A program made the position numbers and the translations under genes. The notes beneath the pieces were generated by a model, which was not told the DNA's origin, ran no database searches, and was given only the letters and a program-made list of their open reading frames with translations. A DNA stretch of 64,000 bases from an uncultured Nonlabens sp. (GTDB lineage Bacteria > Bacteroidota > Bacteroidia > Flavobacteriales > Flavobacteriaceae). Location of the stretch: contig NZ_CANLXZ010000013.1 of the NCBI RefSeq assembly GCF_947495285.1, forward strand, positions 29,741 through 93,740, read 5' to 3'. Shown piece by piece: positions 389-61,036 of this stretch (the first letter of the stretch is position 1; the number at the start of each line of letters is the position of its first letter).

Positions 389-1432
389 ATGAAAGCACAT
401 TTCCAGAAATACGTTTTAGAATTTAAGCAACCAGCAGGAACATCTCGTGGTATTTTAAAAACCAAAAACACTTGGTTTCTTATCATTGATAATGGTAATA
501 AACAAGGTGTAGGAGAGGTGAATATGTTTGCTGGTCTTTCTATAGACGACAGACCAGAATTTAAAAAGCAACTGCAATGGACTTGTGATCATATTAATTT
601 ATCACCGGTAGAGATGATGGAGGCATTAAAAAAATGGCCTTCTATTTTATTCGGTTATGAAACGGCGATGAGGTCCTTGCAATCTAGCGATCCTTTTACA
701 TTGTTTCCAACTATGTTTACAGAAGGGCAAGATGCGATTTCTATTAACGGACTCGTATGGATGGGAAATCAGGATTTTATGATGCAACAGCTAGAAGAAA
801 AACTAGCTGCAGGTTTTGACTGTATTAAAATGAAGATAGGCGCTATCGATTTTGAGTCAGAAATGAGTCTATTGAAATTGATTCGTTCTCGCTTTCGCGA
901 AAGCGAGATCACCATAAGAGTTGATGCAAATGGAGCTTTTACACCTCAAAATGCATTGGGTAAACTAGAAGAAATTGCAAAGTACGATGTACACAGTATA
1001 GAGCAACCTATTAAACAAGGTCAATGGGATGATATGGCACGGCTGTGTGAACAGACGCCGCTAGATATTGCTCTAGATGAAGAATTAATAGGTCTTTATA
1101 GTATAGAAGAAAAGATAGCCTGTCTAGATGTTATTAAACCGCAATATATTATCTTGAAACCTGCTCTGGTAGGTGGTTTTCAAAGTAGTAGAGAATGGAT
1201 AAATCTCGCTACCGAAAGAAATATAGACTGGTGGATCACAAGCGCACTTGAGTCTAATATAGGTCTTAATGCAATTGCACAATTCACGTACACGCTAGGT
1301 AATAAAATGCCACAAGGTCTAGGTACAGGGTCGCTTTATACTAATAATATAAAGGCACCACTAGAGATTAAAGAGGGACAGTTGTGGTGTAACACATCGG
1401 GCAATTGGGATACTAATAAAATAAAGTTTTAA
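389..1432 (+). CDS. menC: o-succinylbenzoate synthase (enolase superfamily)
   Basis: KMKIG, RVDANG, IEQP and LDEEL enolase-superfamily motifs; close to menE. Confidence 0.9.
   Translation: MKAHFQKYVLEFKQPAGTSRGILKTKNTWFLIIDNGNKQGVGEVNMFAGLSIDDRPEFKKQLQWTCDHINLSPVEMMEALKKWPSILFGYETAMRSLQSSDPFTLFPTMFTEGQDAISINGLVWMGNQDFMMQQLEEKLAAGFDCIKMKIGAIDFESEMSLLKLIRSRFRESEITIRVDANGAFTPQNALGKLEEIAKYDVHSIEQPIKQGQWDDMARLCEQTPLDIALDEELIGLYSIEEKIACLDVIKPQYIILKPALVGGFQSSREWINLATERNIDWWITSALESNIGLNAIAQFTYTLGNKMPQGLGTGSLYTNNIKAPLEIKEGQLWCNTSGNWDTNKIKF
890..905. repeat. 16-bp palindrome CGCTTTCGCGAAAGCG, exact, inside menC (encodes RFRES)
   Basis: Read directly; the stem extends to TCTCGCTTTCGCGAAAGCGAGA (887-908). 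Confidence 0.97.
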
Positions 1433-7401: not shown

Positions 7402-8268
7402 TTACGCTTTCGCGAAAGCGATCATAAGAATAGCAACTATAGCTACTGTAATACCTATGTAATTCTTTGGAATTAGTTTTTCTTTGAATATAAGAATGCC
7501 CAGAATAGAAGCAAAAAGGACCGTAGCTACATTATTAATAGGGTAAACCACGCTGCTTTCCATGCCGTTTTTTAAAGATTTAATTAAAAAGTAAATGGAG
7601 AAATAGTTAGGAATTCCTAGCAGGATACCTGCGATTATAGATTTTAAATTGATAAGGCGTTTTTGTGTCGTCTCGTAAATAAGAATGATAACCCCTATGA
7701 TAAAGGCAGTGGCAAAACACATGGCGCTGAATAGAGATTCTTCTCCTACTGAGACGTGATTAATTTCGGCATATTTAAGTGTGGTGTCTATTATACCGCT
7801 ACCCAAAAATAATAGGACAGGAAGAATAAGTGTTTTTTTATCCAGCTGAAGCCCTTCCTTACTTTTAACTGATGTAAGATAAACAGAAATAAGAGCGAGT
7901 ATTATACCTGCGATTTTCATCCATCCTATAGATTCTTCATAAAGCCATATTCCTGCAATAACAGGAATAACTAGCGACATTTTTCCAGAGACAGCAGCGA
8001 CAGTAAGTCCATTTTTCTGGCTGGCAAGTGCCATGATGTTAAAAATAAAAATAAAAAGCGCGCCTGTAAAAAAGGAGTAGTAGAGCCAGTCTGCTTGTAA
8101 AATACTCTCCACATGAGGTACCTGTCCATAGGATATGAACCCAGTGACGCTAGCAATAATGTAATTAGTAATGATAGCATGTAAGGTGTTTACCTTAAAA
8201 ATTTCAAAGTATTTGAAAATCACATAGAGTAAACTAGATGTGATAACACTTAATAATAACCAGATCAT
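7402..8268 (-). CDS. EamA/DMT family transporter
   Basis: About 10 TM segments in two repeats; 288 aa. Confidence 0.85.
   Translation of the reverse strand: MIWLLLSVITSSLLYVIFKYFEIFKVNTLHAIITNYIIASVTGFISYGQVPHVESILQADWLYYSFFTGALFIFIFNIMALASQKNGLTVAAVSGKMSLVIPVIAGIWLYEESIGWMKIAGIILALISVYLTSVKSKEGLQLDKKTLILPVLLFLGSGIIDTTLKYAEINHVSVGEESLFSAMCFATAFIIGVIILIYETTQKRLINLKSIIAGILLGIPNYFSIYFLIKSLKNGMESSVVYPINNVATVLFASILGILIFKEKLIPKNYIGITVAIVAILMIAFAKA
7405..7420. repeat. 16-bp palindrome, exact, forming the last five codons (AFAKA) of the EamA gene
   Basis: Read directly; abuts the stop codon. Confidence 0.97.
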
Positions 8269-9272
8269 GCGTTAAGATATGTTTTTAAAACATCTTTATT
8301 TAAAGTAACTCTATCCAGGATGGTGTAGTTGCCATTTAATTTGGGCGCTGGTAGTCCATTATAAAATAAAACTTCAGTTCCTATAAACTGCATCGCTTCA
8401 TCCCATAAATTAGACTCGATAAATTGTTCTATGGTACGGGCGCCGCCTTCTATAATTACTGACTGTATGTGGTTGTTGTAGAGTTTTTTAATTATGGTTT
8501 CAGGATTGTTGGAGTCTATAGTGATCGTAGGAGCTGCAGTGTTAAAAACAGCGTTGTTTTTACCTAGATTATTTCTAGAATCTAGGATTATACGTGTAGG
8601 ATTCATGCCTTGCCAGTCCCTGCAAGTTAGTGATGGGTTATCATCTATTACGGTTTTTGCGCCTATAAGAATTGCGTTTTCTCCGGCTCTTAATCGGTGA
8701 GATAATTGTCTAGAATAAGAATTAGTAATCCATACTGGTTTTTGTTCTTCTTTTTGTACGGGCGCTATGAAACCGTCGGCAGTTTGGGCCCATTTTAAAA
8801 TAATATAAGGGCGTTTTTTTCTATGAAAAGTAAAAAAACGTTTGTTGAGAAAATCGCATTCTTTTTCTAGAACGCCCACTGTGACTTCTATACCTTCTTC
8901 TTTTAATATGGCAACACCTTTTCCTGCTACTTTTTCATGTGGATCTAGAGAGCCTATGACTACTTTTTTAAACCCCTTTTTTATGATCATAGAAGCGCAT
9001 GGTGGAGTTTTCCCTGTGTGAGAACAGGGCTCTAGGTTGACGTATAATACCGCTTTTGCAAAAGCGTCTCTACCATAACCATTTTTCTCAGCATCTAGGA
9101 CTGCGTTAACTTCAGCATGCGGTTCACCAGATTTTTTATGCCATCCTTCTCCAAGAATCTCGTCATTTTCAGAAACGATCACACTTCCCACTAGCGGATT
9201 AGGATACGTGGTTCCTAATCCATTTTGTGCTAGTTGTATGCAACGTTTTATGTATTTCTCATTTGTAGTCAT
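8265..9272 (-). CDS. ribD: Riboflavin biosynthesis deaminase/reductase
   Basis: HAEVNA, LEPCSHTGKTPPC zinc motifs and IIEGG. Start moved from the track GTG (9278) to ATG 9272 because 9278 lies within the -7 element TACTTTTG (9278-9285). Confidence 0.95.
   Translation of the reverse strand: MTTNEKYIKRCIQLAQNGLGTTYPNPLVGSVIVSENDEILGEGWHKKSGEPHAEVNAVLDAEKNGYGRDAFAKAVLYVNLEPCSHTGKTPPCASMIIKKGFKKVVIGSLDPHEKVAGKGVAILKEEGIEVTVGVLEKECDFLNKRFFTFHRKKRPYIILKWAQTADGFIAPVQKEEQKPVWITNSYSRQLSHRLRAGENAILIGAKTVIDDNPSLTCRDWQGMNPTRIILDSRNNLGKNNAVFNTAAPTITIDSNNPETIIKKLYNNHIQSVIIEGGARTIEQFIESNLWDEAMQFIGTEVLFYNGLPAPKLNGNYTILDRVTLNKDVLKTYLNA
9051..9066. repeat. Palindrome variant CGCTTTTGCAAAAGCG inside ribD (still AFAKA, still palindromic)
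   Basis: Two symmetric substitutions relative to the consensus; both are synonymous in the ribD frame. Confidence 0.75.
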
Positions 9273-13051: not shown

Positions 13052-13067
13052 CGCTTTCGCGAAAGCG
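13052..13067. repeat. 16-bp palindrome, exact, intergenic between ligA and the spondin gene
   Basis: Read directly; the stem extends to AATTCCGC...GCGGGATT. Confidence 0.97.
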
Positions 13068-18481: not shown

Positions 18482-18497
18482 CGCTTTCGCGAAAGCG
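18482..18497. repeat. 16-bp palindrome, exact, intergenic downstream of the LytTR gene
   Basis: Read directly (TTCCGCTTTCGCGAAAGCGCAA). Confidence 0.97.
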
Positions 18498-21691: not shown

Positions 21692-22489
21692 TTATTTTAG
21701 GATATCAAACCTATTATCTCTCTTAAAATTTAACGTGTCTACCTTTTTAAAATAATCAATTAGAGCATTTCTTATTTTATAATCTATTTTAGTCATAGGG
21801 GTATCCTTAAAGAAACTCATGTTGTCGCCACCGTTATATAAATAATCGTTAGTAGCTACGGTATATGTTTTATAGTTGTCTATAGGTTTTTTATTAATGA
21901 GAACCTTGTTGATGGAGTGGTCTTTATTTAATAAAATCTGTAAGCCATCTATAGGGTGTGCACTTTTACGTTCTACCAGGTAATTAATCAATTCATGAAC
22001 CTGTTTACCACTTAATTCTGCAATAACAATCTCGTTATCAAATGGCATTATTTCATATGCGCTACGCATAGTTACTGGGCCCGCGTTAAGACCAGATCGT
22101 ATACCACCGTGATTAAGTAATACCATGTCTAATCTCTTGCCGGTTCTAGAATAATACACAGGTTCTCCTTGTGTTCTAACTATAGCTGCCATCATATTTC
22201 CTATAGGAGTGTTAAGCTTATAGTCGTTCTTGTGCATTGAAGTAGGGTTGTAGCTTATCTGCTCGTTCATTTGTCCGTCTAGAGACTTTTTGAAAGGGGC
22301 AATAAAAGCCTCGATTTCTTCAGTACTTTCTAGAGTTGCGTCTACGGCTGTTTGATTTCCTGAGACTTTTTTAAGCTCATATATTTTCTGGCTGCAAGAA
22401 ACTAGTAAGATGGTGGATAGTAATACCGCTTTCGCGAAAGCGGAATGATTAAATACCACCTTACTGTTTACTAACTTATTTTTTTTCAT
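21692..22489 (-). CDS. 5'-nucleotidase C-terminal (substrate-binding) half, lipoprotein
   Basis: Lipobox LVSC; NHGGIRS, MPFDN and ATNDYL..GGD motifs. Confidence 0.87.
   Translation of the reverse strand: MKKNKLVNSKVVFNHSAFAKAVLLSTILLVSCSQKIYELKKVSGNQTAVDATLESTEEIEAFIAPFKKSLDGQMNEQISYNPTSMHKNDYKLNTPIGNMMAAIVRTQGEPVYYSRTGKRLDMVLLNHGGIRSGLNAGPVTMRSAYEIMPFDNEIVIAELSGKQVHELINYLVERKSAHPIDGLQILLNKDHSINKVLINKKPIDNYKTYTVATNDYLYNGGDNMSFFKDTPMTKIDYKIRNALIDYFKKVDTLNFKRDNRFDILK
22427..22442. repeat. 16-bp palindrome, exact, in the signal-peptide coding region (AFAKA)
   Basis: Read directly. Confidence 0.97.
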
Positions 22490-25169: not shown

Positions 25170-26378
25170 ATGTCTGTATTAAGTGGTAAAAATGTATTGC
25201 TAGGTGTAACCGGTGGTATAGCCGCTTATAAAGCTACTTATCTAGTGCGCCTGCTTGTAAAAGCGGGCGCTGCTGTTAAGGTGGTTATGACACCAGCTGC
25301 AAGAGAGTTTGTGACACCACTTACCTTATCTACACTCTCTAAAAATCCTGTTTTAAGTCATTTTACAAATCAAGAAGACGATAATGATACCTGGAATAAT
25401 CATGTAGAATTAGGGCTCTGGGCTGACTTAATGATTATAGCACCTGCTACCGCAAATACCATGAGTAAAATGGTGAACGGGACTATAGATAATTTATTAC
25501 TAGCAGTCTACTGTAGTGCAAAATGTCCTGTTTATTATGCTCCAGCAATGGATCTGGACATGTATAAACACCCATCTACACAATGCAATTTTGATCAACT
25601 CAACGTCTATGGTAATCTCATGATTCCTGCAGGTGATGGAGAACTAGCTAGTGGGTTATCTGGTAAAGGCCGCATGGCAGAGCCTGGAGAGATACTTAGT
25701 TTTGTTGAAAAAGACATTTCTAATAAATTACCATTAAAAGATAAAGTTTGCCTAATTACCGCCGGCCCGACATACGAGTCTATCGATCCTGTGCGTTTTA
25801 TAGGCAATTATAGTAGTGGTAAAATGGGGGCTGCCATAGCGCTAGAATTAGCAAATCGAGGCGCGTCAGTAAAATTAATTATGGGACCCAGTCATGTTAA
25901 GACAGATCATGAACTCATAGACAGAATAGACGTAAAAAGTGCGCAACAAATGTACGATGCAGTACATTCTATCGTTGCTACTACAGATGTCGCAATATTT
26001 AGTGCTGCGGTTGCAGATTATAGACCTAAAAACCCTGTTGATCAAAAAATAAAAAAGAAGTCTAATACGTTAACTATAGAGTTAGTCAAGAATCCGGATA
26101 TTTTAGCTAGTGTAGGAGCTATGGTGAAAAAACCATTTTTAGTAGGTTTTGCTTTAGAAACAGAAAATGAATTAGAACACGCTTTCGCGAAAGCGGAAAA
26201 GAAACAAACTGATTTACTAGTATTAAATTCTACGCGGGATAAAGGTGCTGGTTTTGGAGTAGATACTAATAAAATTGCGATTATAGATAAGAATAAAAAT
26301 GTTTCAAGATATGAGACAAAACTGAAAACCGAAGTAGCAAAAGATATCGTAGATGAAATTATTAAAAGGATTTTATAG
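25170..26378 (+). CDS. coaBC: Phosphopantothenoylcysteine decarboxylase/ligase
   Basis: GGIAAYK, PAMDLDMY, TAGPT.E.IDPVRFIGN.SSGKMG and GFALETEN motifs. Confidence 0.97.
   Translation: MSVLSGKNVLLGVTGGIAAYKATYLVRLLVKAGAAVKVVMTPAAREFVTPLTLSTLSKNPVLSHFTNQEDDNDTWNNHVELGLWADLMIIAPATANTMSKMVNGTIDNLLLAVYCSAKCPVYYAPAMDLDMYKHPSTQCNFDQLNVYGNLMIPAGDGELASGLSGKGRMAEPGEILSFVEKDISNKLPLKDKVCLITAGPTYESIDPVRFIGNYSSGKMGAAIALELANRGASVKLIMGPSHVKTDHELIDRIDVKSAQQMYDAVHSIVATTDVAIFSAAVADYRPKNPVDQKIKKKSNTLTIELVKNPDILASVGAMVKKPFLVGFALETENELEHAFAKAEKKQTDLLVLNSTRDKGAGFGVDTNKIAIIDKNKNVSRYETKLKTEVAKDIVDEIIKRIL
26180..26195. repeat. 16-bp palindrome, exact, inside coaBC (AFAKA)
   Basis: Read directly. Confidence 0.97.
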
Positions 26379-29918: not shown

Positions 29919-29934
29919 CGCTTTCGCGAAAGCG
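29919..29934. repeat. 16-bp palindrome, exact, intergenic just after the fabI terminator
   Basis: Read directly; arms extend TTTTAT...GATAAAA with a one-base bulge. Confidence 0.97.
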
Positions 29935-34076: not shown

Positions 34077-35078
34077 GTGAACGCTATTTACTACTCTATT
34101 ATTATTCCTGTTTTCAATAGGCCAGACGAGATTGAAAAACTTCTCCATAGTATTTCTGTTTTAAAATTTGACGATAAATTTGAGGTGGTTGTTATAGAAG
34201 ATGGTTCTACTTTGAGTAGTGAGGCTGTTTGTTCTCGCTTTCGCGAAAGCGTAAACATCAACTATCTTTTTAAATCTAATTCTGGCCCAGGAGATTCTAG
34301 AAATTATGGCATGCGTAATGCTGTAGGAGATTATTTCTTAATTCTAGACAGCGATTGTATACTTCCAGAAGATTATTTAAAGAATGTGGATAGGTATTTA
34401 AAGCAAAATTATGTAGACTGTTTTGGAGGTCCTGATGCCGCGCATGATACATTTACTGATTTACAAAAATCTATAAATTATTCAATGACTTCTTTTCTTA
34501 CCACTGGTGGTATAAGAGGTGGAGGAGAGCAGCTAGGTAAATTCCAGCCTCGCAGCTTTAACATGGGAATAAGTAAAAAGGCATTTATTGCCACGGGAGG
34601 TTTTGGTAAGATTCATCCTGGTGAAGATCCAGATTTAAGTATTAGATTATGGAATAAAGGTTTTAAAACGGTCTTAATTAAGGATGCTTACGTCTATCAT
34701 GAAAGACGTATCTCATGGAAATTATTTTATAGGCAGGTAAATAAATTTGGTAAAGTGAGGGTAATCTTGAATAAATGGCATCCAGAGACTAGAAAAATAA
34801 CCTATTGGTTTCCTACCTTATTTAGTTTGTTTTTTATTATTTCTTTAATCTTAAGCATATTAGGGTATGGTTTACCTATATTTTTGTATTTCATTTATAT
34901 AGTAGCTATTTTTATACATGCAAGTATTAAAAATGGATTAAAAGTAGGTTTAGGGGCGACTATAGCAGCTATGATTCAGCTAGTAGGTTACGGCACTGGT
35001 TTTCTATATTCTTGGTTTAAGATTTATGTTTTAGGTGTAGATGAGAGAAAAGCGTTTCCAAAACTTTTTTTCAATTAA
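34077..35078 (+). CDS. Glycosyltransferase family 2
   Basis: SIIIPVFNR, EDGS, LDSDC and GEDPDL motifs. Start moved to the in-frame GTG 34077 because the track TTG lies upstream of the -7 element TATTTTTG (34064-34071). Confidence 0.9.
   Translation: MNAIYYSIIIPVFNRPDEIEKLLHSISVLKFDDKFEVVVIEDGSTLSSEAVCSRFRESVNINYLFKSNSGPGDSRNYGMRNAVGDYFLILDSDCILPEDYLKNVDRYLKQNYVDCFGGPDAAHDTFTDLQKSINYSMTSFLTTGGIRGGGEQLGKFQPRSFNMGISKKAFIATGGFGKIHPGEDPDLSIRLWNKGFKTVLIKDAYVYHERRISWKLFYRQVNKFGKVRVILNKWHPETRKITYWFPTLFSLFFIISLILSILGYGLPIFLYFIYIVAIFIHASIKNGLKVGLGATIAAMIQLVGYGTGFLYSWFKIYVLGVDERKAFPKLFFN
34236..34251. repeat. 16-bp palindrome, exact, inside the GT2 gene (RFRES)
   Basis: Read directly. Confidence 0.97.
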
Positions 35079-38264: not shown

Positions 38265-38981
38265 ATGGAAACTGAGAATAAAAAAATACTTCTTGTAGAA
38301 GATGACCCAAATTTTGGAACTGTATTAAAAGATTATCTTTTAATGAATGACTTTGATGTTACACATGCTAAAAACGGTATGGAAGGGTTTGAAAAATTTA
38401 AGAAAGATAACTATGATCTATGTATTCTTGATGTAATGATGCCATATAAAGATGGTTTTACACTTGCAAAAGAGATTAGAGAAAAAAATGAAGAAGTACC
38501 TATCATTTTCTTAACCGCAAAGGCGATGAAAGAAGATGTATTAAGAGGTTATAAAGTAGGAGCAGATGACTATCTTAACAAGCCTTTTGATAGTGAAGTG
38601 CTACTTATGAAGATAAGAGCAATCATGCAGCGTAAAGGACAAGATAGTCTAGCAGATTCAAAAGAATTTGAATTTCAAATAGGTAGTTTCCATTTGAATT
38701 CTAAATTAAGATTCTTATCAGTTGGTGAAAATGAACCTGTAAAACTCTCCCCTAAGGAGAATGAATTATTACGTTTACTTGCACTGCACCTTAACGATCT
38801 AATGCCTAGAGAACTAGCATTAACAAAAATATGGAGAGATGATAATTACTTTACGTCTAGATCTATGGATGTTTATATAGCAAAGTTGCGTAAATATCTT
38901 AAAGAAGATGATAATGTAGAGATCGTTAACATACATGGAGAAGGTTTCCGTTTGTTAGTTAAAGATCAAGTAGATTATTAA
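38265..38981 (+). CDS. rprY: OmpR-family response regulator (RprY-like)
   Basis: LDVMMP and KPFD receiver motifs; RSMDVYIAKLRK winged helix. Confidence 0.92.
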   Translation: METENKKILLVEDDPNFGTVLKDYLLMNDFDVTHAKNGMEGFEKFKKDNYDLCILDVMMPYKDGFTLAKEIREKNEEVPIIFLTAKAMKEDVLRGYKVGADDYLNKPFDSEVLLMKIRAIMQRKGQDSLADSKEFEFQIGSFHLNSKLRFLSVGENEPVKLSPKENELLRLLALHLNDLMPRELALTKIWRDDNYFTSRSMDVYIAKLRKYLKEDDNVEIVNIHGEGFRLLVKDQVDY

Positions 38982-39901
38982 TTAAGATTGTTTCTCATAA
39001 GTAAAACATTAACTCGCTCTACAATTTCTGTATGGCGAGTTTTGTAATGATACCATTTTACAGAGATATCCTTGCGATACCAGGTTAATTGACGTTTTGC
39101 AAATCTACGAGTATTGCGTTTTATTAATCGCACCGCTTCTTCATAACCATGCTCTTTATTAAAGAACCCAAAAAATTCTTTATAACCTACAGTTTGTAAA
39201 GCATTAAGTTCTTGGTGGGCTATAAGTTGGCGAGCTTCTTCTTCAAGTCCTCTCTCTAACATGATGTCCACACGACGATTTATGCGATCATAAAGATCTT
39301 CACGACTGGCCTCGAGTCCTATTTTTATGACTTTAAAATCTCGTTGTTGAGCAGTTCCAGATCTTAAGTCACTCATTTTTTTGCCGCTAGCGCGATATAT
39401 TCCTACGGCTCTAAGTAATCTATGAGCATTGTGAATATCTACCGTGCTGTAATACTCTGGATCTATGTGTTCTAATTCTTTTTGTAACCAGGTAATTCCT
39501 TTAATCTCAAATTCTTCTCTCAAGAAATCTTGAATCTCTATGGAAACATCAGGAAATATATCTAGTCCATGAGTAACTGCCTTTTCATAAAGTGCACTAC
39601 CACCTACCATAACAACGACATCATTTTTCTCAAAAAGAGTTGGTAATAGATCCATTACATCTCTTTCAAAATCTCCTACAGAATAATCATCCAGAATACT
39701 TCTATCCTGAATAAAATAGTGAGTTGCAGCTGCCAGTTCTTCTGGTTCTGGGACAGCAGTTCCTATGGTCATTTCTTTATAAAACTGTCTGGAGTCTGAC
39801 GATATGATGGATGTGTTGTACGCTTTCGCGAAAGCGATACTCAAAGCAGTCTTTCCTATTCCAGTAGGGCCTACGATACATAGTAGAGTCTTGTTATTCA
39901 T
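38978..39901 (-). CDS. miaA: tRNA dimethylallyltransferase
   Basis: GPTGIGKT, DSRQFY, GGSALY and TRRFAKRQLTW motifs. Confidence 0.97.
   Translation of the reverse strand: MNNKTLLCIVGPTGIGKTALSIAFAKAYNTSIISSDSRQFYKEMTIGTAVPEPEELAAATHYFIQDRSILDDYSVGDFERDVMDLLPTLFEKNDVVVMVGGSALYEKAVTHGLDIFPDVSIEIQDFLREEFEIKGITWLQKELEHIDPEYYSTVDIHNAHRLLRAVGIYRASGKKMSDLRSGTAQQRDFKVIKIGLEASREDLYDRINRRVDIMLERGLEEEARQLIAHQELNALQTVGYKEFFGFFNKEHGYEEAVRLIKRNTRRFAKRQLTWYRKDISVKWYHYKTRHTEIVERVNVLLMRNNLN
39821..39836. repeat. 16-bp palindrome, exact, inside miaA (AFAKA, in the helix after the P-loop)
   Basis: Read directly. Confidence 0.97.
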
Positions 39902-43230: not shown

Positions 43231-46056
43231 CTAATACCACCTTCTGGTAAAAAGTTTTACAAAAGTGTTAATGTCTAGAGTAACTATAAAACGTATTTTT
43301 TCGTCATATTTATCTTGTCCCATTTCCCAGCCATTATTACTGTAAACAGGGAAATACAGCTCAAAATAATCTTGCAAAAAATTTAAACGTATTCCAGAAT
43401 CATAGACAAATTTTGCATCGCGATCTCTGTTTTTTACAAACCCCACGTCTCCATAAACATGAATATAATTCCATAAACTGTACGATCCATTTACCGTGGT
43501 AATCCACTGATTTGCAAATGCTGGTTCTAATTGTGATTTAAAACCACCTTCGGCCACGATTAATTGTTGAGAGAATATACCGCTATCCTCAGATCTACCG
43601 TAGTAGTTGTAATCAAATAAATAGTCTGTAGGTCTATCTAGTGCAAAGGAGAAAAAATCGCCGTTAGATGCGCTATTGTTGGATAGAAAAGCACCAGCAA
43701 AAACTCTAAAATCTAGTTGTCTATTATTTTTAAATAACTTTCGCCATCGCAATCTGTATGTTGCTTTAGTAAATTTACTAGAGATTTCTGTTCCTATATT
43801 ATAATTAAATACGCGTTTTAAATTATTATCAGAATGTGAGAAATTTATGCTGAATACGTTGTAATCTGGCTCGTCTACTGGGCTTAATGGGTCTCGATCA
43901 CGGTCTACATAAATATTTCTAAAACTTAAGGACTGGATCTTATTACTACGTAAATCTTCAGGACGGTAACTAAATTGTAAAAAGCCGCTCGCACGTCGGT
44001 ACAATAGATCATCAGCATAAGAAAAGGTATTTGCACTCACTCCATACCTCACACGATACAGTCTTTCTTCTCGATTTTGAACAGGATGTGCATAGCTCAG
44101 ACTAATAGATCCCACCAGCTTGTTAGAGTTAGTCCCATATCCAGGTTTAATGCTATATCGCAATGGTTTAGGTAATAGATTTCCATTGTAAAATCTTGTT
44201 CCTAGAGTAAGACCGTCATAGATGTTAAATTCTATATCGGGCATTAAAAATATTTGAGAACGTTCTGGATCTTCCACATCTTTAAATAAACGGAATTCTA
44301 ACGGACGGTTCAATGAAGGGAATCCCTTTAGGGTCTTGTAATTATCACGTGGATTAAACTCGGTTATGAGTTTTTCATAGTTTATGGCTATTCTGTTAGC
44401 ACGCTTTCGCGAAAGCGAGATCACACTATCACCTCTCACACCTTCTATCCATCTCTTATCTATAATGCTGTTGTTATCTAGTAAATAGACAGGAATAGGA
44501 ATGTTAAGTTGCGACTTATTCTTGATTCTGAATGAAACGGAGTCTTTGGTTTTATGAACGTTTCTTATCGTCCAGTCCAGCTGTTTATGGGTAGTGATGT
44601 AGTCGTCAAAAAACCAGTTGACATCTTTGGGAGCGTCTTGTTGCACTATTTTTCTAAAATCAGAAACGTCTGTGTAAGCGTTATGATTTGCGGTGTAATA
44701 ATCTCTTATAGATTGTTCTAGGCTGCTGTCTTCTAGATAATCGTTTAAGAAATTTAGTCCTATGGCGGCTTTAAAAGGTATTCCTAATTGCTGATTGTAC
44801 TTTACCAGCTGGTCTGCAGGCGTGTTGACAGCCTCGTCCAGATTGCGTCTTGCGCTGTTAAGGTAGAGTAGTGGATAACTCTCGCTAAATTTGAGTTGCG
44901 TGACATTAAAACCTCTCAATCCCCATACATTACTAAGTTTACCACTTATTTTAAGATCTGGATAGTAAAGTTGCTGGTATTGCATCATTAAATACACCAT
45001 GATAGATTGTTGTATCCAGGCTTCTTTTCTAGGATTAACGTGTACACCGTTTTCTACCCATTTGCGTGTTAGTGCTTTGAGCATTTTAATTTCATAAGTA
45101 AAACCGGCAGGAAAAGGATTTATAAAACTAGGTAAAGAACTTAACCCATAAACTGGATTCTCTCGATAATAACGGTCGGATACAAAGACATCTTTTTCTC
45201 GATAATCACCCAGTCTAGTCTGAAGAAAGCTAGCAATTCTATCGTTAAAAATTACTTTCATTTCTAGAGGTACATCGCTGTCATCTATATCTGTGATAAT
45301 GTTAATGCCTGGTACACTGTAGGTTTTAAAAATATCGATGTCGTTGAGCACATGAAGAATAACACCACGATTATGGCTTGCTGTAAATAAATAACTATGA
45401 CGCGTGTCTGGTAACGCCTCTTGTGCAGTGGTAATATTACTTATCGCTCGATGTGTTGCTGGTATGTGTAGAGAGATCGAAAAATCCATGGGTGCGCCAT
45501 AGAAATCATCTAGATCTTTATGAGAATAATAATCCCATGCTCCATCTTTAAACGGTGCAGGGTGCAGATACCAGTGTTTTAGAGTGTATTCTCCTTTAGA
45601 ATTTTTTCCATAGCCGGTAAAATCGTCTTCTGGTATTTTAACCGTATAATTTAAATCTATGTTGCGAGTAGCGCCTGGTGGCAATGGCTCTTTAAAATAA
45701 AGTTTTATAATATCTTGTTGACCATCTAGTCGCTCGATGCGATAATGTTGATCAAAGTTAGAGTCTGTGGTGATAGTTGTTCTACCTCGCTCTTGATCAT
45801 TTGCAAACTGAAATTTGTTTTTAAAATCTTCGGCAAAGCGTGTTGCAAGCGGTGTTTGTGTAGAAGAAAATGCATTTGCCCAATCTAGAAGTATGATGTA
45901 ATCCCAGGCTGCATCGCTATCGTTATAAATTTCTAGATCTTGATTTATAGACAGCAAGTCTTTATCGCTATCTAGATGTGCGATAATGTCTGTTTTGTAC
46001 TGTGCGTGTAGGACACAAGTAAACAAAAGCAAAAGAAGAACTAGCTTTTTAGTCAT
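43231..46056 (-). CDS. M1/gluzincin-like protein lacking HExxH, with a probable C-terminal beta-barrel region
   Basis: Signal peptide and an M1-like N-terminal layout. The Zn-motif position reads KALTRKW...EAWIQQS; the last ~380 aa show amphipathic beta-strand alternation. Confidence 0.6.
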   Translation of the reverse strand: MTKKLVLLLLLFTCVLHAQYKTDIIAHLDSDKDLLSINQDLEIYNDSDAAWDYIILLDWANAFSSTQTPLATRFAEDFKNKFQFANDQERGRTTITTDSNFDQHYRIERLDGQQDIIKLYFKEPLPPGATRNIDLNYTVKIPEDDFTGYGKNSKGEYTLKHWYLHPAPFKDGAWDYYSHKDLDDFYGAPMDFSISLHIPATHRAISNITTAQEALPDTRHSYLFTASHNRGVILHVLNDIDIFKTYSVPGINIITDIDDSDVPLEMKVIFNDRIASFLQTRLGDYREKDVFVSDRYYRENPVYGLSSLPSFINPFPAGFTYEIKMLKALTRKWVENGVHVNPRKEAWIQQSIMVYLMMQYQQLYYPDLKISGKLSNVWGLRGFNVTQLKFSESYPLLYLNSARRNLDEAVNTPADQLVKYNQQLGIPFKAAIGLNFLNDYLEDSSLEQSIRDYYTANHNAYTDVSDFRKIVQQDAPKDVNWFFDDYITTHKQLDWTIRNVHKTKDSVSFRIKNKSQLNIPIPVYLLDNNSIIDKRWIEGVRGDSVISLSRKRANRIAINYEKLITEFNPRDNYKTLKGFPSLNRPLEFRLFKDVEDPERSQIFLMPDIEFNIYDGLTLGTRFYNGNLLPKPLRYSIKPGYGTNSNKLVGSISLSYAHPVQNREERLYRVRYGVSANTFSYADDLLYRRASGFLQFSYRPEDLRSNKIQSLSFRNIYVDRDRDPLSPVDEPDYNVFSINFSHSDNNLKRVFNYNIGTEISSKFTKATYRLRWRKLFKNNRQLDFRVFAGAFLSNNSASNGDFFSFALDRPTDYLFDYNYYGRSEDSGIFSQQLIVAEGGFKSQLEPAFANQWITTVNGSYSLWNYIHVYGDVGFVKNRDRDAKFVYDSGIRLNFLQDYFELYFPVYSNNGWEMGQDKYDEKIRFIVTLDINTFVKLFTRRWY
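44402..44417. repeat. 16-bp palindrome, exact, inside the M1-like gene (LSRKR)
   Basis: Read directly. Confidence 0.97.
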
Positions 46057-47661: not shown

Positions 47662-48737
47662 ATAACAACAACTACGCAGTAATTATGGCTGGCGGTGTTG
47701 GTTCTCGATTCTGGCCAGTAAGTAAGCAATCTTTTCCTAAACAATTTCACGATATGTTAGGAATAGGTAAGTCACTCTTACAGATGACCTTTGATCGATT
47801 AAAGCATCAAATTCCAGCACAGCACATACTAGTATTAACTAACCATGCCTATGTAGACCTAGTAAAGGAGCAATTGCCCGACATGAACTTTGACAACATA
47901 GTTGCAGAGCCTGCTATGCGCAATACCGCTCCATGTATTTTACTGGCTGCTTTAAAGATTCAGAAAATGAACGCGCAGGCCAGTATGATAGTTGCACCTA
48001 GCGATCATTACATTGCCCAAGAGGACATCTTTAACGAAGACCTTAATACTGCATTTGATTTCTGTAAATTACATCCAGACGCGTTAATGACCTTAGGAAT
48101 ACAACCTACGTTTCCTAATACTGGTTATGGATATATTGAATTTAATAAGGAGGAAAGTGAGGTAAAAAAGGTATCTCAATTTAGAGAAAAACCAGATCTT
48201 AAAACGGCTCAAGAATTTATCGCTGCAGGTAATTTTTTATGGAATGCAGGGATTTTTATTTGGAATGTAGATAGTGTCGTTTCCGCTTTCGCGAAAGCGC
48301 AACCACAATTAACCTCTTTATTTAAAAATGGATTATCTGTTTTAAATACCAACAATGAAACACAATGGCTAGAAGAAAATTATCCAAAAGCCGATAATAT
48401 TTCTGTCGATTATGCGATCATGGAAAAAAGTGAAGACGTGTATGTATTACCTGCACGTTTTTCATGGAATGATCTAGGTACATGGGGCTCGCTTTATGAA
48501 AAACTAGATAAAAATGATAAGCAAAGTGCTGTAGTAAATGCGTCTGTGACAGAGATAGATTCTAGTAAAAATATGATAAGAACGGCAGCTGGTAAGAAGG
48601 TAATCGTTCAAGGGCTAGAAAATTACATAGTAGTAGATCAAGACGATGTATTAATGATTATCCCTATGACTGAAGAGCAGGAAATCAAACAAATACGTAA
48701 TAAAGCCATGGAAAAATATGGCAATAATATAGGTTAA
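47658..48737 (+). CDS. manC: Mannose-1-phosphate guanylyltransferase
   Basis: MAGGVGSRFWP..PKQF, EPAMRNTAP, FREKP and WNDLGTW motifs. Confidence 0.93.
   Translation: MNNNNYAVIMAGGVGSRFWPVSKQSFPKQFHDMLGIGKSLLQMTFDRLKHQIPAQHILVLTNHAYVDLVKEQLPDMNFDNIVAEPAMRNTAPCILLAALKIQKMNAQASMIVAPSDHYIAQEDIFNEDLNTAFDFCKLHPDALMTLGIQPTFPNTGYGYIEFNKEESEVKKVSQFREKPDLKTAQEFIAAGNFLWNAGIFIWNVDSVVSAFAKAQPQLTSLFKNGLSVLNTNNETQWLEENYPKADNISVDYAIMEKSEDVYVLPARFSWNDLGTWGSLYEKLDKNDKQSAVVNASVTEIDSSKNMIRTAAGKKVIVQGLENYIVVDQDDVLMIIPMTEEQEIKQIRNKAMEKYGNNIG
48284..48299. repeat. 16-bp palindrome, exact, inside manC (AFAKA)
   Basis: Read directly. Confidence 0.97.
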
Positions 48738-50193: not shown

Positions 50194-50250
50194 TAGAAGT
50201 AAAAAAAAGCTCTCAAGAACTTTATTCTAGAGAGCTTTTTTTTACTTCTA
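50194..50250. terminator. Long bidirectional terminator at the left edge of the R-M island
   Basis: TAGAAGT-A8-GCTCTC...GAGAGC-T8-ACTTCTA inverted repeat. Confidence 0.85.
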
Positions 50251-50251
50251 A

Positions 50252-50362
50252 TTAAAGATAATGAATTCCTTTTTCTGCTGTTTTAGCGGTGTAAAGCGAT
50301 ACAAATTCTTTGTTATGTATGGCATCTTTGTAGGATGCTGCAACTAAGTATTTAATAGTTAC
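50252..50362 (-). pseudogene. Possible orphan 3' fragment of a displaced gene
   Basis: Start-less open frame VTIKYLVAASYKDAIHNKEFVSLYTAKTAEKGIHYL* ending directly at the terminator. Confidence 0.3.
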
Positions 50363-50363
50363 T

Positions 50364-51888: not shown

Positions 51889-51890
51889 TC

Positions 51891-55168: not shown

Positions 55169-56848
55169 ATGAAGAATTTACTTTCTCTGATACTTCTTTT
55201 TGTCTTGTTGACTTCTTGTAGCACGCTTTCGCCAAAGCGAGACTACCATCCATCTACGTCCTCCATGACAGAATCGAGTGCGCCAGAAAAAGCTCCTAAA
55301 CTAGTAGTAGGTATAGTAGTAGATCAAATGAGGTATGATTATTTATCTAGATTTTATGACCGCTATACAGATGGTGGGTTTAAAAGACTTATGAATGAGG
55401 GTTTTAACCTGACTAATAATCATTATAATTATGTACCTACTTATACTGCGCCAGGACATGCGTCTATTTATACAGGTACATCACCTATGAATCATGGAAT
55501 TATAGGTAACAACTGGTACGATAAATTTGAGGGTAAGGTTATTTATAACGCAAGTGATGACCAGGTGAGTGGTGTAGGTTCTTTAAGTAACGACGGTAAA
55601 ATGTCACCACGTAGAATGTTAACCACTACAGTGACAGATCAACTAGAATTGCACACTCAAGGTAAAGCAAAGGTGATAGGAATTTCTGTAAAAGATAGAG
55701 GTGCTATTTTACCAGCAGGGCACGCCGCAGATGCTGCTTACTGGTTTGAAGGTGGTGATAAAGGAAGTTTTATTTCTAGCACATTTTATCTAGAACGATT
55801 ACCTAAATGGGCGGCAGATTTTAACGCCTCTAGAAAAGCAGACGATTATCTTAAAACCTGGAATACCCTTTACCCATTAGAAACCTATACAGCTAGTGGT
55901 ACAGATCTTAATAAATTTGAAAAAGCACCTAAAGGTAAGACTAACGCTGTTTTTCCTTATGATTTAAATTATTTGAGAGAAAAAAATGATAATTACAGCC
56001 TTATCAAAGCGACTCCATATGGTAATAGCATAGTCGCAGATTTTGCTATCGCAGCAATAAAAGCAGAAAATATGGGGCAGGATGAGGTGACTGATTTTCT
56101 TGCGGTGAGTTTTTCTAGCACCGATTATATAGGACATCAATACGGTGTAAACTCGGTAGAGATAGAAGATACCTATTTGAGACTGGATAAAGATTTAGAG
56201 CGTCTTTTCATGACTCTCGATAAAGAAGTAGGTAATGGGAATTATACTATTTTCTTAACCGCAGATCATGGTGCGATTAATAACCCAGTTTACCTCCAGA
56301 CTAGAAGAATAAACGCAGGTTACTTTAATAGATCTGACTTTAAGAATAATCTATATAAAGCTATACAGGATAAGTATGGTGTAAATGATTTAGTTTCTAA
56401 CATTTCTAACGACCAGATATTCTTTAATAAAGCAAACCTGATTAAAAATAATATCAATCCTATCGATCTAGAGAACTTTATAGCAATGACTATAGTAGAT
56501 TATAAACATATCGATAAGGTATTTACTAGAAATGCGTTAGTATCTGGTACTATGCAAGATGGCACAGGAAAGTTGATTCAAAATGGTTTTCATCACAAGC
56601 GTAGTGGTGATGTGATCTATGTTCTAGAACCAGCTGTTATTTCTTACTCTAAAACGGGCTCTACGCACGGTAGTTCTCAAAGTTATGATACTCATGTACC
56701 ATTATTGTTTTATGGTAATGGAATTAATAAAGGATCTAGCAGTAAGCGCACAGAGATCATAGATATAGCACCGACTGTATCGAGTCTTTTAAAAATAGGG
56801 TTTCCTAATGGATCTACTGGTAATCCTATAAGCGATGCTTTAAAATAA
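55169..56848 (+). CDS. pafA: PafA-type alkaline phosphatase, lipoprotein
   Basis: Lipobox LTSC; VDQMRYDYL, TYTAPGH, KDRGAILPAGH, TDYIGH and TADHG motifs. Confidence 0.92.
   Translation: MKNLLSLILLFVLLTSCSTLSPKRDYHPSTSSMTESSAPEKAPKLVVGIVVDQMRYDYLSRFYDRYTDGGFKRLMNEGFNLTNNHYNYVPTYTAPGHASIYTGTSPMNHGIIGNNWYDKFEGKVIYNASDDQVSGVGSLSNDGKMSPRRMLTTTVTDQLELHTQGKAKVIGISVKDRGAILPAGHAADAAYWFEGGDKGSFISSTFYLERLPKWAADFNASRKADDYLKTWNTLYPLETYTASGTDLNKFEKAPKGKTNAVFPYDLNYLREKNDNYSLIKATPYGNSIVADFAIAAIKAENMGQDEVTDFLAVSFSSTDYIGHQYGVNSVEIEDTYLRLDKDLERLFMTLDKEVGNGNYTIFLTADHGAINNPVYLQTRRINAGYFNRSDFKNNLYKAIQDKYGVNDLVSNISNDQIFFNKANLIKNNINPIDLENFIAMTIVDYKHIDKVFTRNALVSGTMQDGTGKLIQNGFHHKRSGDVIYVLEPAVISYSKTGSTHGSSQSYDTHVPLLFYGNGINKGSSSKRTEIIDIAPTVSSLLKIGFPNGSTGNPISDALK
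55224..55239. repeat. Palindrome variant CGCTTTCGCCAAAGCG (1 mismatch) in pafA (LSPKR)
   Basis: Read directly; lies just after the lipobox Cys. Confidence 0.85.
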
Positions 56849-57399: not shown

Positions 57400-58247
57400 A
57401 ACCCTAGTTTAGACTTTATACCGTTCCAGCGGTAATTTCTTATAAAACGACCTTGCTCTTCTGTTACCAGTGGAGTAAGGTTCTTTTTTTGTGCCAGTCG
57501 GTACCCTTTTAAATAATCGGTAATAAGTGAGAATTGCTTTTTATTCCATGCCATTTTTATGGCTGTAATAAAAGTGAGTGTCCTGCCATAATTCATTTTG
57601 TAAAAAGCCTCTCCTTGTAGGTATTTAGATCTAGAATTATATGCCGCTCCAGTAGGTTTTAAATGTTTTACATGCAAACCGGTAATAGTAAAGACTTGCC
57701 ATCCATAAAACCGCGCCAGCATCTCATCGATCGTATCCCAACCTATACTGGCCTTGAGACCACCTATTTGTTGAAAACACTCTGTTCTGTACGCTTTTAA
57801 AGCACCTCTTATGTGATCAGGATTATTTAGACTTTCTACTTGCCATGTTCCACCTTTATCGATAGTACAATGTCCTGCTGTCATTCCTATTGTTTCGCTT
57901 TCGCGAAAGCGAGTCACCACATCTTTTAAATAGTTTTCAGGAAAAATTAAGTCCGAATCGTATTTACAGACTATGTCATAATCTTCTATATCTATTTGAG
58001 ATAACCCATAATTAAAGGCATGAATCACTTTAGAGCCTGGTATATTTTGCGCACTGGAAGAGGTTTTTACCACATGAATAGGTAGCACAGTAGCATAGGA
58101 GCAAGCTATGTCATAAGTAGCGTCTGTAGAGTTATCATCTACCACCACTATTTGTGCTGCCTTATAAGTTTGCTGTGCTAGACTGTCTAAGGTTAATTTA
58201 ATGAATTGTTCTTCATTATGTGCAGGTATGATAATGACTATTTTCAA
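57396..58247 (-). CDS. Glycosyltransferase family 2
   Basis: IIIPAHNEE, VDDNSTD, DSD and GWDTID motifs. Confidence 0.9.
   Translation of the reverse strand: MKIVIIIPAHNEEQFIKLTLDSLAQQTYKAAQIVVVDDNSTDATYDIACSYATVLPIHVVKTSSSAQNIPGSKVIHAFNYGLSQIDIEDYDIVCKYDSDLIFPENYLKDVVTRFRESETIGMTAGHCTIDKGGTWQVESLNNPDHIRGALKAYRTECFQQIGGLKASIGWDTIDEMLARFYGWQVFTITGLHVKHLKPTGAAYNSRSKYLQGEAFYKMNYGRTLTFITAIKMAWNKKQFSLITDYLKGYRLAQKKNLTPLVTEEQGRFIRNYRWNGIKSKLGF
57896..57911. repeat. 16-bp palindrome, exact, inside the GT2 gene (RFRES)
   Basis: Read directly. Confidence 0.97.
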
Positions 58248-58939: not shown

Positions 58940-61036
58940 ATGAAATGGATCACACTAGTTGCTCTTTTTGGAGCTTATTTTTCTCAATCACAAAACACGC
59001 CTAGTCAGTTAACAACGGTAGATTATAAAAAGGCTGATGTGTCTATACATCTAGATGCAAATTCTAATGAGATAGAAGGTACAGTAGACTATAATCTTGA
59101 AATCTTAAATGATGCGTCATCTATTTTTCTGGATGCAAAAAATCTAGTTTCTTACAACGCCTTATTAGATAATAAGGAAGTGAAAATGATTTATGACGGT
59201 AAGAAACTTGTAGTACAAGCACCTTTTAAGGCAGGAGAGGAGCACGTGCTGCATATCTCTTTTACCAGTTACCCATCAAAGGCTATGTACCATATAGATA
59301 TAGATGATGATGGTTTGTGGGATCAACTATGGACGCAGGGACAAGGTAAATATACCAGCAACTGGTTGCCTAGTATGGATGATATGAATGATAAGATCAT
59401 CTGGAATACGTCTATTACCGCACCTGCTTCTAAGCTTGCAGTTTCTAACGGTGTGCTGTCACAAGTCATTGATGGTAAAGATGTGAAAACATGGAAATAC
59501 ATCATGCAAAAACCTATGTCTAGTTACTTGCTGGCCGTGGTTGTAGGAGATTATGAGGTAAAAAAAGAAAGTAGTTCTTCTGGTTTACCGCTGGAATATT
59601 ACTATTATAAAAATCAAGGAGATAAAGTAGCTTCTACCTATCAACACTCTAAAGAGATTTTTGATTTCTTAGAAGGCGAGATAGGAGTAGCATTTCCATG
59701 GCAAGCTTATAAGCAAATTCCTGTAAAAGACTTTTTATATTCTGGGATGGAAAATACAGGTTTAACCGTTTTTAGCGATGTGTTTTTTACCGATGCGCTG
59801 GGAGCAAATGACCGCAGTTATGTAAACGTAAATGCGCACGAGCTAGCGCATCAATGGTTTGGTAATTTAGTTACCGAGACAGATGCAAAACACCACTGGT
59901 TGCATGAAGGATTTGCTAGTTATTATGCATTGCTAGCCGAAAAGAATCTATACGGTAATTCTCATTTTCAACATCAATTATATGAGTATGCCGAGGCTTT
60001 GAACCAGCAGACTGCTAGAGGGAAAAGTACCGCTTTGTTAGATCCCAAAGCAAACTCGCTTACATTCTATCAACATGGAGCATGGGCTTTACATGCGTTA
60101 AAGGATACGGTTGGAGAGTTCAGCTTTCGCGAAAGCGTAACACGTTACCTCATAAAAAATAAATACAAGAATGTAACTACAAATGATTTTCTAGATATAG
60201 TAGAAGAAGTAAGCAATAAAAATCTAGACGAGTTTAAAGCCACATGGTTAACATCTACTACATTTCCTGCTGCTGCAGCTTTACAAATCTTGAGAAAAGA
60301 ACCTATTATGGAAAACTTTTTACAACTGGCGGCACGACGTATATCCAATTTTGATGAGTCTTATTATTCTTATAAAGAAACGCTAGAAAAGCCTATAGAA
60401 TTAGAACTGGTTAAAGAAATGGTGGCGCAATTAAGTATTCATAATACAAATAAGAAATATGAGTTATTGAGAGAGGCCGCAACACTGGATAATGTAGAGG
60501 TAAATCAATTAATAGTTTTAAGTACGCCTAGTATTAATGTAGAAAATAGAGAGTTAATAAAAAGCATGCTCAACGATGATTCTTACGTAACTAGAGAGTC
60601 TGCCTTATTTCTTTTATGGAATGATGTGAGTGATAAAAGAACCTTTTTAGAAGAAACAAAACAGCAATGGAAAGAAATGAATTATAGTCTAGATATGGCG
60701 TGGATAGTTTTGGCACTCAATTCTAGTGGGTATAGTAACGAAGAGTTACTGCCGTTACTAACTAGATTACAGTCTTATACGGGACTTATTTATAGTACGG
60801 AGACTAGAACAGCAGCGTTTGATTATTTAATAAACCTAGATGCGATGAGTCAGCAAAATTACATGGACCTCATGCAGGCTAGTTTACACCACGTATGGAG
60901 ATTTTATGAAAATGCGCGAGATATTTTAAAAGCTCAATATAAAAGAGAGCATGGTAAATTTCTTATAGATCAGTCTTTTACGCATTTTAATACAGAAAGT
61001 AAGAAACGTTTGAAGAAAATATTAGAGGTAAAATGA
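58940..61036 (+). CDS. M1 family aminopeptidase, exported
   Basis: GMEN and HELAHQW-x-HEGFASY motifs intact; start set at ATG 58940 (signal peptide). Confidence 0.93.
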   Translation: MKWITLVALFGAYFSQSQNTPSQLTTVDYKKADVSIHLDANSNEIEGTVDYNLEILNDASSIFLDAKNLVSYNALLDNKEVKMIYDGKKLVVQAPFKAGEEHVLHISFTSYPSKAMYHIDIDDDGLWDQLWTQGQGKYTSNWLPSMDDMNDKIIWNTSITAPASKLAVSNGVLSQVIDGKDVKTWKYIMQKPMSSYLLAVVVGDYEVKKESSSSGLPLEYYYYKNQGDKVASTYQHSKEIFDFLEGEIGVAFPWQAYKQIPVKDFLYSGMENTGLTVFSDVFFTDALGANDRSYVNVNAHELAHQWFGNLVTETDAKHHWLHEGFASYYALLAEKNLYGNSHFQHQLYEYAEALNQQTARGKSTALLDPKANSLTFYQHGAWALHALKDTVGEFSFRESVTRYLIKNKYKNVTTNDFLDIVEEVSNKNLDEFKATWLTSTTFPAAAALQILRKEPIMENFLQLAARRISNFDESYYSYKETLEKPIELELVKEMVAQLSIHNTNKKYELLREAATLDNVEVNQLIVLSTPSINVENRELIKSMLNDDSYVTRESALFLLWNDVSDKRTFLEETKQQWKEMNYSLDMAWIVLALNSSGYSNEELLPLLTRLQSYTGLIYSTETRTAAFDYLINLDAMSQQNYMDLMQASLHHVWRFYENARDILKAQYKREHGKFLIDQSFTHFNTESKKRLKKILEVK
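60122..60137. repeat. Palindrome variant AGCTTTCGCGAAAGCG (1 mismatch) in the M1 aminopeptidase gene (SFRES)
   Basis: The 14-bp core 60123-60136 is perfect. Confidence 0.9.

Follow-up and report, generated by a model that had tools for sequence, protein, structure and literature searches.

A stretch of 64,000 nucleotides from an uncultured Nonlabens species (assembly GCF_947495285.1, contig NZ_CANLXZ010000013.1, positions 29,741 to 93,740; referred to as the window in the following) carries a perfect 16-bp palindrome, CGCTTTCGCGAAAGCG, at positions 39821-39836. It lies inside miaA, the gene for tRNA dimethylallyltransferase (minus strand, ...GKTALSIAFAKAYNTSIISSDS). The closest named MiaA is that of N. 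xylanidelens DSM 16809, with 90% identity, in agreement with the organism being a Nonlabens. We consider it probable that these bases are one copy of a genome-wide word, which is selected or driven at the level of the DNA and is neither a peptide motif nor a mobile insert. The core of this word is the 14-mer GCTTTCGCGAAAGC, to which a C/G is usually added at either end to give the 16-mer. Within genes, its copies occupy codons that were already present, and the length of the host protein is unchanged.

Abundance, conservation and arms of the word

The window holds 13 exact copies of the 14-mer, compared to 0.00 in 100 dinucleotide-preserving shuffles, and the genome (3.2 Mb, 34.6% G+C) holds 581. 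When all positions are sorted by their Hamming distance to the word, these 581 perfect copies are joined by 87 one-off and 57 two-off variants, where about 0.003, 0.16 and 3.7 are expected, respectively. Likewise, the inner 10-mer occurs only 598 times genome-wide, and decayed copies are therefore rare. With open reading frames (ORFs) of at least 100 amino acids as the gene proxy throughout, 340 of the 581 copies (59%) are found in ORFs, where they are read in three frames as AFAKA (179), RFRES (80) or LSRK (81); the other 241 (41%) are intergenic. In the window, credible ORFs hold 10 of the 13 exact copies, fewer than the 12 host proteins counted in the initial annotation, and the copies at 13053, 18483 and 29920 are intergenic by this proxy.

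The copies are evenly spaced. At an overall density of about 1 per 5.5 kb, the mean gap is 5.2 kb with a coefficient of variation of 0.52, where random placement gives 0.96; gaps below 2 kb are scarce (25 of 522), and only seven are shorter than 1 kb. Between genes, the density is highest in divergent spacers (0.75 per kb), followed by tandem (0.63) and convergent ones (0.40). As it is lowest in convergent spacers, the intergenic copies are not located at terminators, and since Rfam gave no match in the 64-kb window either, a role as terminator or as repetitive extragenic palindrome (REP) was ruled out.

Of 29 Nonlabens species, with MiaA identities down to about 60%, about 25 have the exact word at the corresponding miaA codons, and four retain AFAKA with altered codons. 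Across these species, the entropy of third codon positions is 0-0.5 bit within the motif, compared to 0.9-2.0 bit in adjacent conserved codons, and the frozen synonymous sites include a rare GCG codon. Nearly all 13 sites of the window are found at the same position in five congeners with 67-90% nucleotide identity, where the core is exact and the flanks drift. Most copies are old and have been maintained, as opposed to being written recently. The miaA copy itself evidently predates the radiation of the genus, and the silent positions indicate that the DNA word, and not the peptide, is what is kept.

The functional unit extends beyond the 16 bp of the palindrome. Over ~25 nt 5' of the core, C is nearly excluded on either strand (1-8%, compared to a background of 17%), and T peaks at -3/-4, -7, -10 and -13 in the genome-wide profile. 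This arm signature is most pronounced in the 241 intergenic copies and is therefore not a codon effect, so that a codon artefact was ruled out as its source. In genes, the arms leave about six codons without C at all three positions, and without G on the opposite side, and the affected stretch amounts to ~50-60 bp. For this reason, MiaA reads ...YNTSIISS where outgroups have ...FNTEIISC. Across copies, the arms share their composition, not their sequence: mirrored positions pair no more than the column composition predicts, i.e. there is no covariation, and own arms fold no better (-12.4 kcal/mol) than arms swapped between copies (about -12.7 kcal/mol). These results rule out an extended hairpin or cruciform, and given the lack of excess complementarity and of a folding advantage, we regard the arms as two independent half-sites.

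Origin, turnover and distribution of copies

The initial annotation had quoted the miaA motif as it is present in the window and had claimed that AFAKA replaces residues of MiaA and adds none, with reference to the E. coli sequence. This sequence was correct, as it matches PDB 2zm5, and the query aligns without a gap to the enzymes of E. coli, Bacillus and Staphylococcus. Moreover, the spacing from GK[TS] to DS is 16 residues in 80 of 80 loci from Nonlabens and ~70 other Flavobacteriaceae. The normal spacing expected for further hosts was confirmed, too: the quoted peptides are present, and the alignments are gap-free through the motif peptide in CoaBC (HAFAKAEKK vs HARAKLERK), MenC (RSRFRESE vs RESFSPQQ), the GT2 glycosyltransferase at 34059 (CSRFRESVN vs CEEYAKIDN), the M1 peptidase (EFSFRESV vs PENFQKGC), ManC and the second GT2 at 57396. 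Accordingly, a 15-18-bp insertion is not seen in MiaA or any of these six proteins; for one further host, the 941-aa ORF at 43231..46056, no solved homologue was found. Copies had also been assigned to tolerant places, which is true of a C-terminus (7406, ...AFAKA*) and a signal peptide (22428), but not of a position directly after a lipobox, as the copy found precedes it.

At the MiaA site, the ~70 outgroup Flavobacteriaceae from motif-free genera read x-L-A-K/N/Q-x-F/Y (e.g. KLAKHF, ALAKAY, AIAKAF). AFAKA is therefore derived in MiaA, by substitution, and is not ancestral in lineages that lack the motif. The change needed at least L->F, with flanking E->S and C->S as well, and thus the motif does change the protein sequence, as had been proposed. 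The proposal had further contrasted an origin by substitution or templated overwrite with the insertions of Rickettsia palindromic elements (RPEs); of these two, it is substitution that the data show. The substitutions did not start from arbitrary sequence. Evidently, copies sit where the ancestral sequence already resembled the word more than an average position does. In 71 outgroups, the 14-mer corresponding to the miaA copy has a mean of 7.5 mismatches, compared to a background of 10.7; it outranks ~97% of positions in its closeness to the word and, in eight of the 71 loci, is the best match within ~7 kb. For 15 cross-genus sites, the mean is 8.7 mismatches.

Turnover was followed in one 470-kb contig pair between the genome of the window (G000) and its closest relative (G007), and in one region of 64-80 kb per other genome. 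Along the 470 kb, 68 sites are shared, 16 are found only in G007 and two only in G000, and none of these 18 polymorphic sites is a clean motif indel. The difference amounts to 1-2 bases at nine of the 16 G007-only sites. Seven sites differ by at least three bases, and six of them are ancestral copies lost in G000, by 5-9 mostly GC->AT changes at unchanged length. The seventh is a gain in G007, the single recent gain that could be polarised, and it forms the final 14 bases of an intergenic segment of 1.14 kb that was inserted. One-off variants chiefly result from C>T in an outer CpG of one or the other strand (31 copies), and in none of them is the central GC changed. The double variant with symmetric changes, GCTTTTGCAAAAGC, has 21 copies, compared to ~2 expected for independent hits, and is nearly absent from G007. 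The only C5-methyltransferase of the window, encoded on a G000-specific island, was considered as the cause of this G000-specific decay and rejected. It matches M.HhaI in motifs I-VIII, ends before the target-recognition domain and is thus a truncated, HhaI-like (GCGC) enzyme, and the observed/expected ratio of CGCG is unchanged across congeners (0.77-0.79 in all).

Where length differences do occur, they are found inside the word. At site 57897, the short form SRFRESE is found throughout the genus, and longer alleles have seven (G005/G016/G014), six (G015) or four (G050) additional codons. The seven-codon insertion is placed at the palindrome's centre, CACTTTCGC-[21 nt]-GAGAGC, and a comparable insertion of 18 nt is found in the centre of the palindrome at a second site in G005. 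By their distribution, these length changes are secondary, derived insertions. In addition, 10 of 115 ends of G007/G000 homology blocks lie within 20 nt of a copy, compared to 1.3 expected at random or ~4 of 115 if all breakpoints are assumed to be intergenic, so that an enrichment of homology breaks at copies is suggestive, not conclusive.

The word was found in 39 of 39 sampled Nonlabens genomes, with 175-738 copies of the 16-mer in the 18 that were counted. Beyond Nonlabens (92 genera of the order and 266 of the family), bulk copies are found only in G556 (549 16-mers) and G536 (154 16-mers; 17 14-mers in 80 kb). MiaA from these two genera is 47-50% identical to that of Nonlabens, compared to 52-58% for motif-free genera, and hence they are no closer to Nonlabens than the latter. 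Both are without the word at the Nonlabens miaA, coaBC and GT2 sites, and their MiaA reads IQLAQHF and IKVAQHL; conversely, of 21 intragenic sites of G556 and G536 that can be aligned to G000, 19 are without the word in G000, and 15 of the 21 are gap-free within +-6 residues. These different positions in three non-sister genera imply that copies were installed in place, independently in each lineage. One of two sites common to genera is the conserved RFRESGKW of a ComEA-like protein with three helix-hairpin-helix repeats, which bears the motif in G556 (position 73034) and G000, with 33% identity between the two proteins. The arms, in the form TTAC-core-GTAA, are also found in G556 and are nearly absent in G536 (46.5% G+C). 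Finally, the word is found in a 37-kb contig of a tailed (pro)phage, IMGVR_UViG_3300040781_000495, which encodes a terminase, portal, protease, major head, sheath and baseplate hub protein. It has at least six 16-mer copies, a host-like density, and some of them are inside the terminase and portal genes.

Several observations concern motif-bearing DNA in other genera and the copy number within Nonlabens. The TolC-like outer-membrane gene of a CzcA-type metal-efflux operon (G000 C21:12331-13548) contains two copies 933 bp apart, in the signal peptide (VSAFAKAQQ) and in ESAFAKAQS, and the same 933-bp pair is found in four motif-poor genera (G231, G425, G435, G453). This efflux cassette has evidently moved between genera with the motif copies as a barcode. 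Clusters of 4-5 copies within 11-28 kb of otherwise motif-free genera (G611:C1:119473-147445; G425:C1:2826984-2837721; G435:C1:2543036-2562674) look like islands imported from a motif-bearing donor. Within Nonlabens, the clade of G014, G005 and G016 has the lowest copy numbers of the genus (175, 355 and 427 16-mers, compared to 500-738 in most others), and maintenance of the word may be weakening there.

Proposed mechanism, alternatives and known analogues

To account for these data, we propose that the word would be read by a sequence-specific, probably dimeric DNA-binding factor, which may be horizontally transferable. A balance of mutation with selection, or with drive, would keep the word count stable, similar to the DNA uptake sequences (DUS) of Neisseriaceae, the uptake signal sequences (USS) of Pasteurellaceae and the highly iterated palindrome HIP1. 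Substitutions at permissive near-matches, or import through recombination, would supply new copies, and the loss of copies proceeds through point decay or insertions at the centre of the palindrome. As to the role of the reader, a signal for recombination, DNA-end processing or uptake is a tentative suggestion, to which we give no more weight than to something else entirely, and chromosome or nucleoid organization is slightly more doubtful than either. A role in recombination or DNA-end processing would fit the C-free, G/T-rich and triplet-phased 5' arms, the breaks and insertions at the word, and the phage copies; the even spacing would equally fit a role in uptake or nucleoid structure. In its most specific form, a transferable reader/writer would install the 14-bp word and its strand-symmetric, C-free, triplet-phased arms at ~5-kb intervals in any genome that it enters and overprint proteins in the process; the dyad would be nicked or cut, and a RecA-like filament in triplet register would be loaded outward on each strand. 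We consider this form unlikely, yet if true, it would constitute a palindromic, bidirectional entry signal for recombination or repair of a kind not described before.

Some points weigh against a word that is selected or driven at the DNA level. Each copy requires 4-11 specific substitutions, some of them non-synonymous, and the small number of intermediates (87 one-off, 57 two-off) makes it difficult to imagine that copies were built up by gradual steps alone. Among the intragenic copies, no recent gain in place was observed, so that the birth process is one that we infer; G536 is nearly without arms, which makes their necessity uncertain; and the gene calls are an ORF proxy. Furthermore, no reader or driver emerged among the tested candidates: in profile tests of 12 carrier and 16 non-carrier genomes, neither the ATPase of pili and type II secretion systems (T2SS) nor Vsr, reverse transcriptase or Y1 transposase co-occur with the motif. 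The ATPase (PF00437) is above the cut-off in only two of the 12 motif-rich genomes, G000 not being one of them, and pilus-dependent uptake was rejected for this reason. The same applies to a Vsr-driven ratchet, as Vsr (PF03852) is absent from 11 of the 12, to a retron-like writer, as reverse transcriptase is absent from six motif-rich genomes, and to the REP-associated tyrosine transposase (RAYT; PF01797), which is not co-distributed with the motif, as it is missing in G033, G034 and G536 and occurs in many genomes without the motif. The ComEA-like protein is present in carriers, but not specific to them, and closely spaced motif pairs, examined as pointers to a reader gene, yielded none that was convincing.

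Among the alternatives, a dedicated writer survives best, although we deem it quite improbable. By short-patch gene conversion, oligonucleotide-templated repair or self-templating of the palindrome through template switching, it would turn a near-match into the word in one step and at unchanged length. Such a writer would explain why the distribution of perfect and near copies is so sharp and how the identical word was installed independently in three non-sister genera, and the 4-11 substitutions per site suggest a process more efficient than unaided point mutation. The excess of the symmetric double variant would also fit templating from arm to arm, but is equally explained by relaxed constraint together with a hypermutable CpG. 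However, no in-place one-step gain was observed, six of the seven multi-substitution differences are losses in G000 and not gains, and neither reverse transcriptase nor Vsr tracks the motif. In addition, the arms differ between copies, so that a template could not be longer than 16-22 nt.

A neutral by-product of biased mutation or repair, i.e. a 'ratchet' as discussed for HIP1 that produces a word without function, is less probable still. It would be consistent with the presence of the word in (pro)phage at host density, with its absence from recently acquired DNA such as a restriction-modification island, and with the lineage-specific differences in copy number and decay. Yet a repair bias is not expected to result in even spacing with few copies less than 2 kb apart, Vsr is missing from all but one of the motif-rich genomes, and the positional conservation across the genus argues for retention and not replenishment, as has been argued for HIP1 (PMC5861425).

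We find it hardly conceivable that the word is a miniature mobile element inserted in frame, in the manner of RPEs, REPs or miniature inverted-repeat transposable elements (MITEs). Its copies are palindromic, dispersed and numerous, the only recent gain came within inserted DNA, and homology breaks are enriched nearby; but none of the eight tested host proteins has gained length, orthologous positions are fixed across the genus, the arms have only their composition in common, Y1 transposases are not co-distributed, and copies are not confined to extragenic space. Equally remote is the idea that AFAKA, RFRES and LSRK are selected protein motifs for which DNA identity is secondary: AFA fits signal-peptidase sites, frame-0 copies are in excess at N-termini, and RFRESGKW coincides with the conserved ComEA repeat peptide, but three frames are in use, 241 copies are intergenic, synonymous positions are frozen, and AFAKA with altered codons is rare.

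The closest analogues of the word are DUS/USS and the cyanobacterial HIP1. For DUS, a bimodal pattern of mismatches has been reported, together with a location at permissive sites and a lack of copies in new genes (PMC2397512). Similar to DUS/USS, the Nonlabens word is short, taxon-specific and strongly over-represented, is found in genes and spacers and in all frames, occupies permissive positions in core genes with high positional conservation and regular spacing, and is absent from recently acquired DNA. Polymorphic sites face one-off variants or unrelated sequence, as for DUS (PMC2397512), and no residues are inserted. Unlike DUS/USS, which are asymmetric and 9-12 bp long, it is a perfect palindrome of 14-16 bp, and it is ~5x rarer (1 per 5.5 kb) and not concentrated in terminators. 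The pilus/T2SS-type ATPase is, moreover, missing from most motif-rich genomes, including G000, and to our knowledge, competence has not been described for Nonlabens and the other carrier genera.

HIP1 (GCGATCGC) is conserved by selection and not by replenishment, is non-randomly spaced, and its function is unresolved (PMC5861425, PMC4390886). Like HIP1, the Nonlabens word is palindromic and hyper-abundant in coding and non-coding DNA, is conserved beyond its codon context, has non-random spacing and plays no peptide or RNA role. But whereas HIP1 has 8 bp, occurs about once per gene and is found phylum-wide, the word described here has 14-16 bp with arms of ~25 nt, occurs once per 5.5 kb with short-range exclusion, and is found in three genera of one family. 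Also, HIP1 is tied to orphan methyltransferases; in the Nonlabens word, the C>T decay at the outer CpG hints at methylation.

Other systems are more distant. Known Chi sites are asymmetric, have 5-8 nt and are co-oriented with replication. The Nonlabens word resembles them in its density, which is close to that of Chi in E. coli, in being a word of self-DNA that is also found in phage of the host, and in the enrichment of homology breaks at its copies; the G/T-rich, C-free sequence 5' of the word would be located where a Chi-terminated 3' tail is loaded with RecA. It differs from Chi in being a long palindrome with symmetric arms, and even spacing is not a property of Chi. RPEs are inserts of 100-150 bp that add residues; they share with the Nonlabens word the in-frame location of a palindromic repeat within protein genes, but no residues are added at the tested Nonlabens sites. 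REPs are imperfect extragenic hairpins. Together with their RAYT, REPs and bacterial interspersed mosaic elements (BIMEs) likewise amount to hundreds of dispersed palindromic copies per genome, but 59% of the Nonlabens copies lie in ORFs, there is no selection for a hairpin, and the Y1 transposase is not co-distributed.

In the searchable literature, we found no description of the 14-mer, no HIP-type palindrome linked to Flavobacteria, and no Nonlabens palindrome besides CRISPR. New here are the arm signature and its independence of coding, the measure of predisposition, the polarity of gains and losses, the central insertions behind length differences, the G000-specific CpG decay, the non-orthologous positions in the other carrier genera, and the four negative co-occurrence tests. 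On the reading favoured here, a non-coding signal at the DNA level overrides codon choice, and even amino acids, in hundreds of housekeeping proteins for the lifetime of a genus, and independently in three genera. Being long, almost never found by chance and evenly spaced, the word is a cleaner system than HIP1 or DUS/USS for studying the creation, reading and loss of such signals: there is information in each single copy, and its gain, loss or horizontal transfer can be followed at the level of individual bases. It also serves as a barcode for Nonlabens-type DNA in other genomes and phages, and the annotation of such proteomes has to reckon with AFAKA, RFRES and LSRK tracts that are unrelated to protein function.

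Features of the window and minor observations

Table 1. Host gene, extended footprint and further copies of the word in the 64-kb window
Feature	Position	Strand	Details	Evidence or comparison
miaA (tRNA dimethylallyltransferase), host gene	38978..39901	-	product starts MNNKTLLCIVGPTGIGKTALSIAFAKAYNTSIISSDS	homology to MiaA structures
16-bp perfect palindrome CGCTTTCGCGAAAGCG in miaA	39821..39836		encodes (I)AFAKA on the minus strand	same codons in ~25/29 Nonlabens species
Extended footprint of the miaA copy	39797..39860		left arm C-free (gatatgatggatgtgttgta), right arm G-poor	genome-wide arm profile; frozen upstream third positions in miaA
Copy in menC-like gene	891..904		RSRFRESE; IRSRFRESEI	homologue alignment
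Copy at C-terminus of ORF 7402..8268	7406..7419		final five residues (AFAKA*)	
Decayed copy GCTTTTGCAAAAGC	9052..9065		symmetric pair of C>T changes, one per outer CpG	perfect in G005, G016
Intergenic copy	13053..13066		left boundary of 6.15-kb segment 13073-19221	segment without counterpart in closest relative G007
Intergenic copy	18483..18496		within G000-specific segment 13073-19221	
Copy in lipoprotein signal-peptide region	22428..22441		..HSAFAKAVLLSTILLVSC, directly ahead of lipobox LLVSC	
Copy in coaBC	26181..26194		EHAFAKAEKK; ELEHAFAKAEKK	homologue alignment
Intergenic copy	29920..29933		directly after terminator-like hairpin	
Copy in GT2 glycosyltransferase (GT2 at 34059)	34237..34250		CSRFRESVN	homologue alignment
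Copy in 941-aa ORF (43231..46056)	44403..44416		third frame (SLSRKR)	
Copy in manC	48285..48298		VSAFAKAQP; VVSAFAKAQP	homologue alignment
One-off copy GCTTTCGCCAAAGC	55225..55238			perfect in G007, G005, G016
Copy in second GT2 (GT2 at 57396)	57897..57910		TRFRESET	genus-ancestral; disrupted by central in-frame insertions in three lineages
Copy in M1 peptidase	60123..60136		EFSFRESV	homologue alignment

The 6.15-kb segment encodes a Cache-LytTR regulator as well as OB-fold, YceI and beta-barrel proteins, and its left edge lies 6 nt past the motif copy at 13053. A second G000-specific region, the island at 50241-53551 (genes 50364-52772), is replaced by unrelated DNA in G007 and has no motif copy; besides the truncated C5-methyltransferase, it encodes an HNH nuclease and an N-terminally short HpaII-like endonuclease. 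Elsewhere in the genome, two copies 651 bp apart (contig C9:13818, 14469) flank the spacer upstream of recA, with the nearer ends ~88 nt before the recA start. As regards other short palindromes, CCGG is depleted in G000, G007, G005, G016, G001 and G041 (observed/expected 0.67-0.9), and CTAG is over-represented in G000 and G007 (1.24-1.26), compared to 0.86-1.05 in the other four genomes.

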